The notes under the pieces: model-generated
Database searches by the model: none
What the model was told of the DNA's origin: nothing
The model's input: only the letters and a program-made list of their open reading frames with translations
Part shown: positions 24,606-29,230 of the stretch, piece after piece
Position numbering within the stretch: the stretch's first letter is position 1
How the letters are laid out: each line of letters starts with the position of its first letter
Program-made: the position numbers and the translations under genes
Source of the DNA: an uncultured Nitrospiraceae bacterium
GTDB lineage: Bacteria; Nitrospirota; Nitrospiria; Nitrospirales; Nitrospiraceae
Length of the DNA: 64,000 nt
Assembly: GCA_963706325.1 (NCBI GenBank)
Contig: CAVPLT010000004.1
Location: forward strand, 704,001 to 768,000
Reading direction: 5' to 3'

Positions 24606-24881
24606 TTACGTATGCAAAGGTCGGTGAGGCGGCGCCGCGTTCTGGATATGGTGAATGTCCACGAGCTGTTCCGTGCGATCGATCGAATAGAAAATCCGCC
24701 AGTCGCCCACGGCATATTTGTGGATGGCCGGCAAATCGGCAGCGACCGGTTCATGCCGCAGATTCTCTACATTGGAAGCCAACCATTTGGTTTTGTCGAA
24801 CAGCCGTTGCGCCATGGCGGGATCGGCAGCACGCAAGTCGGTAATGACATCAGGCCGGAACGCTAAACGAAACCACGGCAT
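24606..24881 (-). CDS. RelE/ParE family toxin
   Basis: 91 aa; K..VGDWRIFYSID motif. Confidence 0.75.
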   Translation of the reverse strand: MPWFRLAFRPDVITDLRAADPAMAQRLFDKTKWLASNVENLRHEPVAADLPAIHKYAVGDWRIFYSIDRTEQLVDIHHIQNAAPPHRPLHT

Positions 24882-24885
24882 CGCG

Positions 24886-25104
24886 TTACCACCGCAGGCC
24901 GAGTTTATCGGCCACTTCGTCGCCCGTCAGACGTTCGGTAGAGGCCAGGGATTGCTTGAGGCGGTCGCGTATAGACTCGCCCAGTGGCGCACCCAGATCG
25001 GGGTCGCCCAGCAAGACCCGCAGCCGATCGTCGACGATCCCTTCGACCAGTTGCTTCAATTCGGCCAGGCTCAGGTTGGAGATGGTGATGGTCGGCTCGG
25101 TCAT
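24886..25104 (-). CDS. Putative antitoxin (72 aa)
   Basis: AGGAGT RBS; acidic; DPDLG..L and EVADKLGL; directly upstream of the toxin. Confidence 0.7.
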   Translation of the reverse strand: MTEPTITISNLSLAELKQLVEGIVDDRLRVLLGDPDLGAPLGESIRDRLKQSLASTERLTGDEVADKLGLRW

Positions 25105-25373
25105 AATCACTCCTAAATAATATTTGGAGCATACGGGGCTAGTCCTGGGAATTGCAAGCAAGATAGGGGATGAGGGTGGAGCATCACGGTGGACCGATAA
25201 AAACTGGTGATGGTGCTTGTGTGGGAGGGATTGAAGCAGTATTCTTCCGGCGGGCAATAGGAAAAACCAATGCACAGTTCTTCTCTGATCTACGTCAGGT
25301 TAACAGATTTGGACCCTCTACATTCAGAAGTAGAAATTCTACCTTCGTGGGATAGCGTGAGGATGACCACGTT

Positions 25374-27610
25374 ATGATTCGCCGCATTGAGCAAATCAAA
25401 GCGTTCGGGGTTTTCGCGGACCTTCGGTGGCCTGCTACTCTCCCAGATTTCAAACAGTTCAACCTAATCTACGGTTGGAACTATTCAGGCAAGACGACAT
25501 TGTCTCGTGCCTTTCGATGCTTTGAGCAGAAGAGGCCGCATGCAGACTTCGCTGACGCACAGGTGGAGCTTAAGTCTGAGGACGGAACGGCTCACCACCT
25601 GTCCTCTCCGCAAGCCGCCCCATTGTTTCGGGTCTTCAACAGTGACTTTGTTCATGAGAACCTTGCCTTCGATGAAGGAATCGCAAATCCGATTCTGGTT
25701 CTGGGATCCGAAGACATAGCGAGACTTGAGAAGTTGGACGCTAAGAAAGCCGAACGGGAATCTACGGCCGTGCTGATCGAGGCAAATAAGCAAAAAAAGG
25801 ATGAGAAGGAAAAGAAAATTGAGAGAGCATTCACAAAGGATGCACGTGATTTGATTAAGAATCCGCTGAGTGTGCCTAATTATGACAAAACACATTTCGA
25901 ACGTGAGGTTACCGCGTGCAAAGAAACCCCCAATACCTATCTACTGAAGGATAAGGCGTTGCAGAAGTGGCTTTCCGTTTATTGCTCCACCGACAAGAAG
26001 CCTGAACTTTCCACCAAGGTGGTTTCACTCTGCTCTGTTGGGGATCTTGTGAAGAAGTCGACCGCACTTCTTAAGCGGGTCGTAACGACAAATGCCCCAA
26101 TCCCCAGGCTAAAAGAGAACCCGATCCTTGAGAATTGGGTCAATGACGGCCGGCCTCTACACGAAGGAGAAAGCACATGTCAGTTCTGTGGTCAACTACT
26201 GCCACCCGCCCTTCTGAGCCACCTGACTGGGCATTTCTCAGCAGACTACGAAAACTTGATGTCGGAACTAGACATCTTGTTGAATGCAATTCAGGTTGCT
26301 CAAGACCAGCAGTTAGTGCTCGACCATAGATCCGATTTCTATGCCGAACTCTCAGAACGATTCATCGATGCGAAAAACCGATTAGATGAACACTTGAAAG
26401 TTCGGAGCTCCGCGCTTGAGGCCCTCGAGAAAATTCTGATTGCAAAGCGAACCAAGGCATTTACGAGTCTTCTGTGCCCCGTGGTTGAAGATCCTGCGCA
26501 TCAAATTGCCACAGCAATTGAGGAAATCAACGCAATCATCGCTGAACACAATAAACAGACGACGCAATTCGACAAAAGACGTCGAGAGGCATTCAGTAAT
26601 CTCGAAAGGCACTATGCCGCGTCGTTCGTTCTGGATCAGCACTACAGCGATCATCTTCAGGAAATGGTTAGTCTCAACGCCATTATTACTGAACAGAATG
26701 AAAAGCTCTTCGCCCTAGACGGTGAAATCCGCGACCTCGAAAAGGCAGTATGTGAAGCCTCGAAGGGGGCAGAGAGAATCAATGAGCTACTCGGCCTGTA
26801 TTTCGGAAAGAATGACCTGCGCATAGTCGTGTCCGCTGACAATCGCTTTCAAATTACCCGAGCAAATGTGGTAGCGCGGAACTTGAGTGAAGGGGAGAAA
26901 ACCGCCATTGCGTTTGCCTATTTTGTGATCCACGTTCAGGATGAGAAGTATCCTTCGGATGGCCTGATTGTTGTCATCGATGATCCCATATCGAGCCTGG
27001 ATGCGAACCACTTGTTCAACACATACGCACTAATTAAGACTCAGTTAGCGGACTATCGCCAGCTCTTCGTATCGACTCACAGCTTTGAGTTCTACAACCT
27101 AATCCGGGAGTGGGTAGCAGAAGATGAGGGCAAGGATCACGCAAAGAAACCACAGGCTGGATGGAAAAATGGGGAATATTTCTTGTCAGACGGACCGTCG
27201 ATGGAACTTCGGCATTGGAGGAAATTCCCAGAGAACTCCTGCGCTTCAAGTCGGAGTATCACTATCTTTTTTCAATGCTTTGCCGGTTTCACAAAACGAG
27301 GTCGGGAGACTTCGACTGCATTTTCAACCTGCCAAACATCGTGCGGCGCTTCATGGAAGCTTTCGGCGGTATCATGATCCCATTGTCAACCGGACTAAAA
27401 GGAAAGATGACGCGCCTTTTTACTAACGAGGTTGAGCGGGAGCGCGTATGGAAATTCATCAATCATTATTCGCACAATGCTACCATCACGCGCTCACTAA
27501 ATATTCCCGATACTAGTGAATGCGTTGCTGTTGTTGATGCTTGCCTGAATGCGGTCAGGGCTTGGGATGATGAGTATTTCTCGGACCTTGAGAAAGAAGT
27601 CACAGGTTAA
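25374..27610 (+). pseudogene. RloC-like AAA_13 ATPase with C-terminal HEPN-like domain; -1 frameshift at about 27165-27169 (possibly a sequencing error)
   Basis: IYGWNYSGKTT, CQFC hook, LSEGEK, IDDPISSLD, STHS; frame 27161..27610 continues with PNIVRRFMEAF and FINHYSH; lower GC than flanks. Confidence 0.75.
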
Positions 27611-27658: not shown

Positions 27659-28255
27659 TTAAGTGGGCTTACTCTCGCACCGCTCCCCATCCGACGCCTC
27701 GCACGAACAATTCAAACAGCCATGGACGGAACAGGTGCCGCAGGCCCGTTCGATTTGGCGACGAAGCGCCGCCCTGGCTCGATGCACGCGAACTGCGGCG
27801 TTTTCGGCGGTAATGCCTGACTGCTGAGCCAAGTCTTTCAGTTTGCCTTCCTCCAGGTCCACGATCCGCAGAGCCTCGCGGTATTCTGGCTTCAGCGTCT
27901 CCAGCAGGCTGGACACGCATTGGCAGATCTCCTGACGCAATTCCGCCTCTGGTTCCTGAACATCCGGAAATTCTCTCCCCCAGGCTTCCATCGTTCGCGC
28001 GGCGGCGGAACGCTGCCGGTAATGATCGATCACGGCGTTGCGGAGAACCCGATAGAACCAGGCCACGGCCTTTTCGTCCTGCACATCGCCGCCCCGCTCC
28101 AGTCCACGCGTAAAGGCCGTTTGTAAAATATCTTCAGCCACGGCTCTCGATTCCACACGCCGCTCCAGGAATGCCAGGAATTCCTTGTGTCCCTTCACCA
28201 GTAGCGCGATGGCCTCGGGCGAAAGGGTTGTCGATGGGGTCGATTCGAGGCTCAT
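27659..28255 (-). CDS. ECF sigma-70 factor, CorE/ECF44 (SigZ-like) type with Cys-rich C-terminus
   Basis: AEDILQ, WFYRVLRN..IDHYR, inter-domain CQC, RVHRAR, C-terminal CGTCSVHGCLNCSC...C. Confidence 0.88.
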   Translation of the reverse strand: MSLESTPSTTLSPEAIALLVKGHKEFLAFLERRVESRAVAEDILQTAFTRGLERGGDVQDEKAVAWFYRVLRNAVIDHYRQRSAAARTMEAWGREFPDVQEPEAELRQEICQCVSSLLETLKPEYREALRIVDLEEGKLKDLAQQSGITAENAAVRVHRARAALRRQIERACGTCSVHGCLNCSCEASDGERCESKPT

Positions 28256-28285
28256 GGGAGCAGCTTACCAAACTATTTGCGGAAC

Positions 28286-28311
28286 TGTAAGGTTTTTGGG
28301 AGGCCTCCGTC
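28286..28311 (+). promoter_or_regulatory. Candidate ECF-type promoter for the Cys-rich peptide
   Basis: TGTAAG-N16-CGTC about 50 nt upstream of ATG 28361. Confidence 0.35.
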
Positions 28312-28360
28312 AGCCTCTGTGACGACGCAATCACGCGCCGCATATCAAAGGAGACCGGCC

Positions 28361-28522
28361 ATGGCTGACATCAAAAAATCCACCTCGCAGAAGATCGCAA
28401 AGGCAAGCTGCTGCGGAACCTGCGATTGCGCTTCCTGTGCCTGCGGGTGCCAGGCAAACGCCTGCCGCTGCGAGCAAACGAACTGCCAATGTGGATGCCG
28501 CAAACAAACCTCTGGTCGGTAG
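28361..28522 (+). CDS. Metallothionein-like Cys-rich peptide (53 aa, 12 Cys)
   Basis: AAGGAG RBS; CCGTCDCASCACGCQANACRCEQTNCQCGC; no aromatic residues; followed by a hairpin. Confidence 0.75.
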   Translation: MADIKKSTSQKIAKASCCGTCDCASCACGCQANACRCEQTNCQCGCRKQTSGR

Positions 28523-28530
28523 GCTGGTGA

Positions 28531-28562
28531 TGCCCCGCCCGCCGGATTCTGAAGGGCGGGGT
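28531..28562 (+). terminator. GC-rich hairpin after the Cys-rich peptide
   Basis: GCCCCGCCC...GGGCGGGGT; U-tract is weak. Confidence 0.45.
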
Positions 28563-28768
28563 CAATAACCAACCCAAGCGGTCTGTCGTGCCTGAGAAGC
28601 ATTGTGAGGATGTCGCCGCTCACGTATCATGCGTTCTCACATGAGATTCGGCTGTATGAAAGTTGGTGAACAGTGCCGACGAGCAGACGGCCAGGGAGTG
28701 CAGAAACTTGCCGACGGGAGTCCCATGCGGTAGATACTTCCTATCTGTGATGCAGGAGAACTGATCCC

Positions 28769-29230
28769 ATGCAGGGTTTAGAATTAAAAGTCCCTCCACT
28801 GGCTCTCCTTCTGTTCGCAGGTGGATGCATGTGGGTGGTCGCCTGGGCGGCGCCGGCATTTGCGTTTGCCTTTCCCGCCCGTTTTGTTTCCGCAATGGGT
28901 GTGGTGGTCATCGGGATCGCTATAGCAGGCATGGGTGTGTTTTCATTCAACCGGGCTAAGACCACCGTCAATCCTATGAAGCCCGAGTCCTCGTCCGCTC
29001 TGGTCGTGAGCGGCATCTATCAACTGACACGCAATCCCATGTATCTGGGCATCTTGCTGTTGCTGCTCGGCTGGGGCATATTCCTCTCGAACGCGCTGGC
29101 GTTCCTGATTCTTCCTGGATTCGTCCTGTATATGAATCGTTTCCAAATCGAACCAGAGGAAAGGGCGCTCACCCATATATTTGGACAAGAGTTTGTGACC
29201 TATCGTAATCAGGCCCGAAGATGGATATAA
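28769..29230 (+). CDS. Isoprenylcysteine carboxylmethyltransferase (ICMT/PEMT) family membrane protein
   Basis: TTVNP, LVVSGIYQLTRNPMYLG, PEERAL, RRWI; GGAG RBS. Confidence 0.88.
   Translation: MQGLELKVPPLALLLFAGGCMWVVAWAAPAFAFAFPARFVSAMGVVVIGIAIAGMGVFSFNRAKTTVNPMKPESSSALVVSGIYQLTRNPMYLGILLLLLGWGIFLSNALAFLILPGFVLYMNRFQIEPEERALTHIFGQEFVTYRNQARRWI

Follow-up and report, generated by a model that had tools for sequence, protein, structure and literature searches.

In the genome of an uncultured Nitrospiraceae bacterium, a gene for a CorE-like (ECF44/ECF238) ECF sigma factor of 198 residues (27659..28255, minus strand; positions are those of the window, the whole stretch of 64,000 nucleotides that was analysed) diverges from a small gene for a metallothionein-like peptide of 53 residues with 12 cysteines (28361..28522, plus strand), the two start codons being 105 bp apart. 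As judged from the sequences, this sigma factor, presumably made at a low level and activated by copper through its CxC linker and Cys-rich tail, probably transcribes a short, hairpin-capped mRNA for a metallothionein that would buffer Cu(I). The sigma factor is of a known kind; the family of its putative target is unannotated and, in the literature searched, undescribed, and the promoter is predicted.

The small ORF is a real, conserved coding gene. Its ATG is preceded, at a distance of 7 nt, by the Shine-Dalgarno sequence AAAGGAG (28347..28353, plus strand), the AAGGAG part of which is invariant in 16/16 orthologous loci. The genome has 834 ORFs of 30-80 residues that are led by a Shine-Dalgarno sequence, and none of the others has more than eight cysteines. 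The 16 loci with an orthologous sigma factor contain the whole peptide gene in 15 cases and a copy cut by the contig end in one, with a gap of 105-106 bp throughout. All 12 cysteines are invariant in the 15 complete alleles, the variable alignment columns are distributed over the first, second and third codon positions as 20/18/41, and the dN/dS ratio, calculated jointly for the 14 alleles that have 53 codons, is 0.19 overall, 0.08 in the Cys core and 0.38 in the N-terminal leader. Across 39 genomes of the genus, which is Nitrospira as judged from named relatives of the window, the peptide is found in 26 and a close sigma factor in 27, and each of the 26 peptides has an orthologous sigma factor, of at least 82% identity, at a distance of about 105 bp, although related genomes carrying the pair are non-independent samples. 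The exception (G1332) has a sigma factor that is 72% identical and located near the same SbcC-like gene, without the peptide and without the promoter motif described below. The original prediction of a 53-residue ORF with 12 Cys, no His or aromatic residues and a Shine-Dalgarno sequence, situated 105 bp from a divergent ECF sigma factor with a CxC linker and a Cys tail, was confirmed, and the Cys pattern and the synteny on which it could be checked in relatives are both retained.

The expectation that gene callers would miss such an ORF was likewise borne out. A Cys-rich gene adjoins the sigma gene at the loci of NIDE1902 (L045) and G. mallensis AciX8_3385 (L078), and in this respect our reading differs from the description of the CorE group, the published neighbour rows of both members omitting it (PMC4937300); the lack of a metal-handling gene in these rows can be ascribed to a target too small for gene calling. 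In exact look-ups against a collection of 15 billion proteins, 9/9 peptide sequences (representing eight genes) were absent and the N. defluvii sigma factor was present. Protein searches with the peptide returned 33 and 35 relatives, all of them nameless or "hypothetical", one being from Paludibaculum. A profile search of a 401-genome draw of the phylum gave 12 matches, namely, 11 from the genus and one weak, and a broader profile run against 401 Acidobacteriota genomes matched only the centre genome, so that the family is patchy. One contig labelled Bryobacterales (L052, JADZCI010000367.1) carries an 85% identical sigma factor and an 80% identical SbcD-like gene in Nitrospira-type synteny, and is probably mis-binned; because of this synteny the locus (L052/L137) was excluded from the cross-phylum counts.

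The product of the gene is likely to be an all-cysteine metallothionein, and a predicted copper binder. Its cysteines, which make up 23% of the residues, are spaced as CC, CxxC and CxC, and there is no His and no Phe, Trp or Tyr, the aromatics being absent from 15/15 alleles. The peptide had no match in Pfam (E up to 1), NCBIfam or PDB (E up to 10), and an Atlas search produced only a sub-threshold match (0.76) to Metallothio_5. The SmtA/BmtA family (PF02069), searched for by profile, was not found in this genome, and the peptide, also, has no His. The earlier description of the peptide as "eukaryote-like" thus holds for composition but not for homology, no profile or sequence relationship to the eukaryotic metallothionein families having been found in Pfam or PDB. 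The layout of the peptide, in which a variable basic stretch of 16 N-terminal residues precedes the conserved Cys core, recalls the leader and core of a RiPP precursor, and the ORF might alternatively encode such a precursor or a disulfide-rich peptide. This alternative is hardly to be credited: conservation is lowest in the leader, which is missing in the short members, the neighbours vary between loci, and the 49 neighbour ORFs that were selected out of 108, at 20 loci, include no radical-SAM, YcaO or lanthipeptide enzyme.

The sequence assigns the sigma factor to the ECF44/CorE-like factors. The protein consists of the sigma2 and sigma4 domains only, PF04542 (Sigma70_r2) and PF08281 (Sigma70_r4_2) both scoring above the Pfam cut-offs; the best NCBIfam models are SigZ/ECF, with scores under the equivalog cut-offs. 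The linker contains a CxC motif, C111-Q-C113 (27917..27925, minus strand), that is invariant in 24/24 aligned sigma factors, and the C-terminal Cys-rich domain reads C172-x2-C175-x4-C180-x2-C183-x-C185-x7-C193 (27677..27742, minus strand), the spacing of its first five cysteines being that of CorE C181/184/189/192/194. Specifically, the four conserved tail cysteines of CorE (181, 184, 192 and 194) are matched by C172, C175, C183 and C185, and C180 corresponds to CorE 189. The protein is 90% identical to CBK41628.1 of N. defluvii, the locus of which (L045) has the neighbours, namely, an AbiEi pair, a metallophosphoesterase and a type I restriction R gene, that are given in the Table S4 row of NIDE1902 (PMC4937300); by this sequence and neighbourhood match the N. 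defluvii orthologue is NIDE1902, which stands on both published lists of ECF44 members. No anti-sigma family was detected by Pfam or NCBIfam among the neighbours, either in the window or in the related loci, so that domains, CxC, tail spacing and neighbours all agree with the claim of a CorE/ECF44-like factor that has no adjacent anti-sigma, although one encoded elsewhere in the genome may exist.

The metal to which the sigma factor responds can be approached through a single tail position. CorE has Ala185, the C174A replacement in CorE2 switched the response from Cd to Cu, and a non-Cys residue at the position of CorE Ala185 and CorE2 Cys174 marks the copper type (PMC4937300). Since this position is occupied by Ser176 in the sigma factor described here, the latter was assigned to the copper type, and it likely senses copper itself.

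The intergenic region contains two conserved blocks on the strand of the peptide gene, TGTAAG and CGTC, separated by 16 nt (28286..28311, plus strand) and retained in 16/16 orthologues. Such a -35/-10 arrangement is the usual layout of an ECF promoter; TGTAAG-N16-CGTC is, accordingly, predicted to be a sigma-specific promoter that is aimed at the peptide gene, with a predicted transcription start near 28321 (plus strand). On the opposite strand, a predicted housekeeping extended -10 element, TG-n-TAAGCT (28262..28270, minus strand), ends 6 nt ahead of the sigma ATG, which lacks a Shine-Dalgarno sequence, and the arrangement TG-n-TAAG(C/T)T, about 6 nt before the ATG and again without a Shine-Dalgarno sequence, recurs in 16/16 orthologous loci. 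This suggests that the sigma mRNA is leaderless and made from a housekeeping promoter, the -35 region of which would overlap the ECF -35 element of the other strand; such a predicted transcript agrees with the incomplete autoregulation that has been reported for CorE-like genes (PMC6851896).

The peptide mRNA is framed by two potential RNA structures. At its predicted 5' end there is a small stem-loop (28321..28341, plus strand) that is weak in the window (-5.1 kcal/mol) and more stable at the remaining 15 orthologous loci, where its energy ranges from -8.4 to -12.6 kcal/mol; it may have a protective role. Downstream of the gene, a GC-rich hairpin (about 28531..28564, plus strand; -26.6 kcal/mol, z = -2.86) shows 95% of cells paired across 17 loci in the RNAalifold structure, with covariation that does not exceed that of shuffled alignments (172/500 shuffles reach the score). 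The hairpin noticed earlier is thus present and conserved, but, having no U-tract and being unlisted in the terminator scan, it is no canonical intrinsic terminator; it is likely to be an mRNA end or a stability element. Among public RNA runs, 14 (from six studies) contain at least 72% of the words of a congener locus (L002:1100-2150). In the contigs of four runs, the depth is higher on the peptide side in three and equal in one, although depth cannot rank genes and such contigs cannot reveal expression level or induction; the contigs cover the flanks as well, so that a DNA origin is possible. One contig terminates in an adapter some 10 nt downstream of the predicted start, although contigs cannot show starts, and these RNA observations were given no weight as evidence.

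A regulatory connection between sigma factor and peptide is supported by the distribution of the motif TGTAA(G/T)-N16-CGTC. In the 64-kb window its only match, against 0.14 expected, is at the peptide gene. It precedes 14/14 peptide genes examined by 40-67 nt (with a spacer of 17 in one case), and does so in divergent, downstream and upstream arrangements; being present before the peptide on either side of the sigma gene, it is tied to the peptide and not to the sigma factor. In 30 other CorE-like loci, 25 sites with the 16-nt spacer were found (in 21 loci) versus 0-4 for other spacers, and 7 other ECF loci contained no spacer-16 sites. Taken by itself, the short motif shows no enrichment over the whole genome (12 sites vs 2-15 for other spacers). 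The extended motif, in the 39 genus genomes, gave 65 matches in 33 genomes versus 6 for a reversed control, and when 30 of the extended-motif loci were fetched, a gene followed in 29, namely, the peptide in 16, an HMA/CopZ gene in 5 and a DUF4396-type gene or its remnant in 8.

The original prediction had proposed scanning the flanks of such sigma genes for small Cys-rich ORFs. In 104 further loci, which were found by sigma queries, de-duplicated and non-orthologous, the motif, with spacers of 15-17 nt allowed, occurs within 1.5 kb in 66 versus 4 for the reversed control, a tolerance that was widened to this range after the new loci had been viewed. A Cys-rich mini-ORF led by a Shine-Dalgarno sequence is present in 27 of these loci, in 25 of them behind the motif, and 77 have none within 1.5 kb; for the 74 loci that had not been used in deriving the motif, the counts are 44 with the motif, 16 with a mini-ORF and 14 with a mini-ORF behind the motif. 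The published description of the CorE site, AAC at -35 followed by a G 16-18 nt later (PMC3107203), fits the TGTAAC variant that we see before CopZ and CopA genes in Myxococcota loci, and the ECF238 reclassification, in its available text, reports neither a conserved promoter motif nor such a Cys-rich neighbour (PMC7826278).

The own genome contains exactly two matches to the extended motif, each with its -10 element 49 nt from the gene: one belongs to the peptide gene and the other (at C4:663185) to a gene for a membrane protein of the DUF4396 type, His-rich at its N-terminus (G000:C4:663110-663673, L193), the second predicted target. Several congeners, too, have the predicted ECF44 promoter in front of their DUF4396 gene, the product of which is a candidate copper-handling protein. 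Hence, the notion of a "minimal module" does not hold in the strict sense of two genes. No ECF44 motif was found upstream of the CopA-like ATPase gene of this genome (C1:1031973-1034669). Beside CorE-like sigma factors that have no such peptide, the motif precedes genes for HMA/CopZ proteins, P1B-ATPases (CopA), cupredoxins, YHS proteins and DUF4396 proteins. Many Nitrospira genomes, in addition, encode a second CorE-like sigma factor (41-45% identical; L017, L018, L028-L030), which is followed by the motif and a CopZ/HMA gene, and cross-talk between the two paralogues is possible.

These targets bear on the question of whether the inducer is copper at all or, instead, Zn, Cd, Ag, Hg, arsenite or thiol oxidation, with the peptide serving as a general buffer for soft metals or redox changes. 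CorE2 is activated by Cd and Zn, and CorE, too, answers divalent metals (PMC4937300, PMC3107203); metal identity is not readable from the sequence of the peptide, and an ArsP-type permease is found among the motif targets (L096). The sigma factor, on the other hand, has no Cd-specifying Cys, and the motif targets with Pfam matches are mostly CopZ/HMA proteins, P1B-ATPases and cupredoxins, so that we regard a non-copper inducer as quite improbable. On alphaproteobacterial plasmids, the motif was seen before stress and metabolic genes (L099, L101-L103), and three of these loci (L101-L103) have it in front of the sigma gene as well; some CorE-like sigma factors may thus be autoregulated and not metal-specific. 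One of these loci also contains an unannotated 69-residue ORF with two Cys pairs (L103:5655-5861).

The position behind the motif is occupied by different Cys-rich peptides in different lineages. The family described here is found in Nitrospira and Bryobacteraceae, the partner peptides of Acidobacteriota (Granulicella and others) have 23-29 residues, and those of Myxococcota have 49-59 residues with 12-16 Cys. The Acidobacteriota peptides, which have 7-10 Cys and adjoin CorE-like sigma genes (L077:2825-2908, L078:2854-2934, L066, L145, L159 and L160), are candidates for unusually small metallothioneins. A Myxococcota sigma clade that has no equivalent of CorE Cys184 (L131, L135, L136, L218, L221-L223) uses a 17-nt spacer and is paired with a separate family of 14-16-Cys peptides with a CCC motif. 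In Bryobacteraceae, sigma paralogues (L150-L152, L161-L163) are accompanied by a site with a 15-nt spacer and then a gene with a signal-peptide-like start.

That one regulatory slot is filled by Cys-dense peptides of dissimilar sequence would suggest a common chemistry, namely, metal-thiolate binding, and not a protein interface. The strict adjacency of peptide and sigma factor (26/26) could be read otherwise, namely, as a sign that the peptide binds the sigma factor directly, either as a soluble anti-sigma or as a metal-delivering chaperone, and a Cu(II) chaperone has indeed been postulated for CorE (PMC3107203). We deem this very unlikely, as the same slot is filled by dissimilar Cys-rich peptides of 23-76 residues and elsewhere by CopZ or CopA, and 77/104 other CorE-like loci have no such peptide nearby. 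The occupation of the regulon slot by CopZ or CopA in other genomes argues that the peptide is an effector rather than a substitute for an anti-sigma. A role of the peptide as a replacement for CopZ was considered and rejected: the own genome has no HMA gene, but many genus genomes carry both.

The preferred scenario, in which a copper-activated sigma factor drives a metallothionein gene, can be envisaged as follows. Expression of the sigma factor from its leaderless housekeeping promoter would be low and constant, and the protein, by analogy with CorE and CorE2, would stay inactive until the CxC motif and the Cys tail bind metal. The metal-bound form would steer RNA polymerase to TGTAAG-N16-CGTC, yielding a short, hairpin-capped metallothionein mRNA and, from the site elsewhere in the genome, the mRNA of the DUF4396 membrane protein. 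The peptide could fold around a number of Cu(I) ions, or of Zn/Cd, and act as a buffer, and the drop in free copper would then stop the response, which is the least certain step; the overlap of the divergent promoters might further damp transcription of the sigma gene. Negative feedback by the peptide on the sigma factor, as put forward in the original prediction, is plausible but not a given, since Cu(I) chelators increase the activity of CorE (PMC3107203), which argues against a simple loop of this kind.

Thiolate-only peptides favour Cu(I), and here the feedback could take the opposite sign. Under the same regulation, the peptide would scavenge the Cu(I) that inactivates the sigma factor, thereby sustaining the response or storing copper. 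In M. xanthus, Cu(II) activates CorE and Cu(I) inactivates it, and the Cu(I) chelators BCS and BCA raised cuoB expression about threefold (PMC3107203), so that a Cu(I)-binding metallothionein could prolong the response; the sigma factor, moreover, has C175 at the position of CorE Cys184, which is required for the inactivation. Against this, TTM, a chelator of both copper redox states, abolished CorE activity (PMC3107203), and a strong thiol sink would presumably also reduce Cu(II), cutting the total free copper. On balance, feedback of the opposite sign appears unlikely.

The surroundings of the pair are variable. On the side of the sigma gene, an AAA_13-family gene (25374-27610, plus strand) has a frame break near 27160, the resulting ORFs of 667 and 149 residues both matching PF13166; its GC content is 48.5% vs 56.7% for the genome, and relatives have HerA or type I restriction genes in this place. 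The break is due to a sequencing indel, or else the gene is a pseudogene occupying a variable slot. Farther out, a ParE/RelE-like toxin ORF (24606-25275, minus strand; PF05016, E 1e-5) and the small nameless ORF that precedes it are likely a type II toxin-antitoxin pair. On the other side there are an SbcD/SbcC-like pair and a gene for a PEMT/ICMT-family membrane methyltransferase (28769..29230, plus strand; assigned by Pfam) that has a sigma-70-like site of its own at 28602-28630. The methyltransferase gene, whole or as a remnant, is found in 8/18 orthologue loci, and a "phospholipid methyltransferase" directly adjoins the sigma gene in at least three rows of Table S4 (PMC4937300), so it is a possible fringe member of the module. 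No HMA-domain, CsoR or SmtA-type genes were found in this genome (96% complete).

The relationship to known systems helps to define what is new. CorE (MXAN_3426) and CorE2 (MXAN_5263) of Myxococcus xanthus, classified as ECF44 and later as ECF238, have the same sigma2 and sigma4 domains, the CxC linker and the CorE-spaced Cys tail (PMC3107203, PMC4937300, PMC7826278); as in the present case, the group works without an anti-sigma, and its predicted targets adjoin the sigma gene. MymT of Mycobacterium tuberculosis, a metallothionein for Cu(I) with a mass of about 5 kDa, is likewise small, Cys-rich and unannotated (PMC7558416), but is controlled by the CsoR-family repressor RicR, whereas no CsoR member was found in the genome studied here and no family match for the peptide. 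The regulator of SmtA, of the SmtA/BmtA and Pseudomonas metallothioneins, is also divergent, and the operator lies in the intergenic region (PMC7387436); SmtB, however, is a repressor, and these proteins form Cys/His zinc clusters and belong to PF02069, which was not found here. Yeast Ace1/Cup2, a copper-binding activator, turns on the 12-Cys metallothionein CUP1 (PMC10167020), which is an analogy only, as there is no PDB sequence match (E up to 10) and the activator here is a sigma factor. Zrd of Pseudomonas aeruginosa is a small unannotated Cys protein that is activated by metal-bound CadR and has been proposed to be a sequestering sink (PMC12301328); the activator in that case belongs to the MerR family, and mononuclear zinc-ribbon sites are involved instead of a Cys-dense cluster peptide.

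A link between CorE-like sigma factors and a metallothionein was not found in the open literature searched, subscription papers lying outside its scope, and the word "metallothionein" is absent from the main text of PMC3107203, PMC4937300 and PMC6851896, as well as from four of the five supplement files of PMC4937300. The peptide family as a sigma target and the motif appear, accordingly, to be new to the sources covered, with the reservation that the image of the CorE site (PMC3107203, Figure S3) could already show the motif.

Beyond the single locus, we tentatively entertain, as a possibility of somewhat lower standing than the local scenario, that CorE-type sigma factors of Nitrospirota, Acidobacteriota and Myxococcota repeatedly recruited dissimilar all-Cys mini-proteins behind TGTAA-N16/17-CGTC; these would be overlooked copper metallothioneins under sigma activation, a counterpart of Ace1-CUP1, with a feedback loop in place of the anti-sigma. 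Few bacterial metallothioneins have been functionally studied, among them SmtA and MymT (PMC7387436) and PmtA (PMC12301328). If the proposed scheme is true, a His-free metallothionein family would be under activation by a metal-binding sigma factor, in distinction to SmtA and MymT, which are repressor-controlled, and the motif, as a candidate ECF44 promoter consensus, would make CorE-like regulons predictable. The organisms concerned include the Nitrospira, key nitrite oxidisers of copper-exposed wastewater plants.
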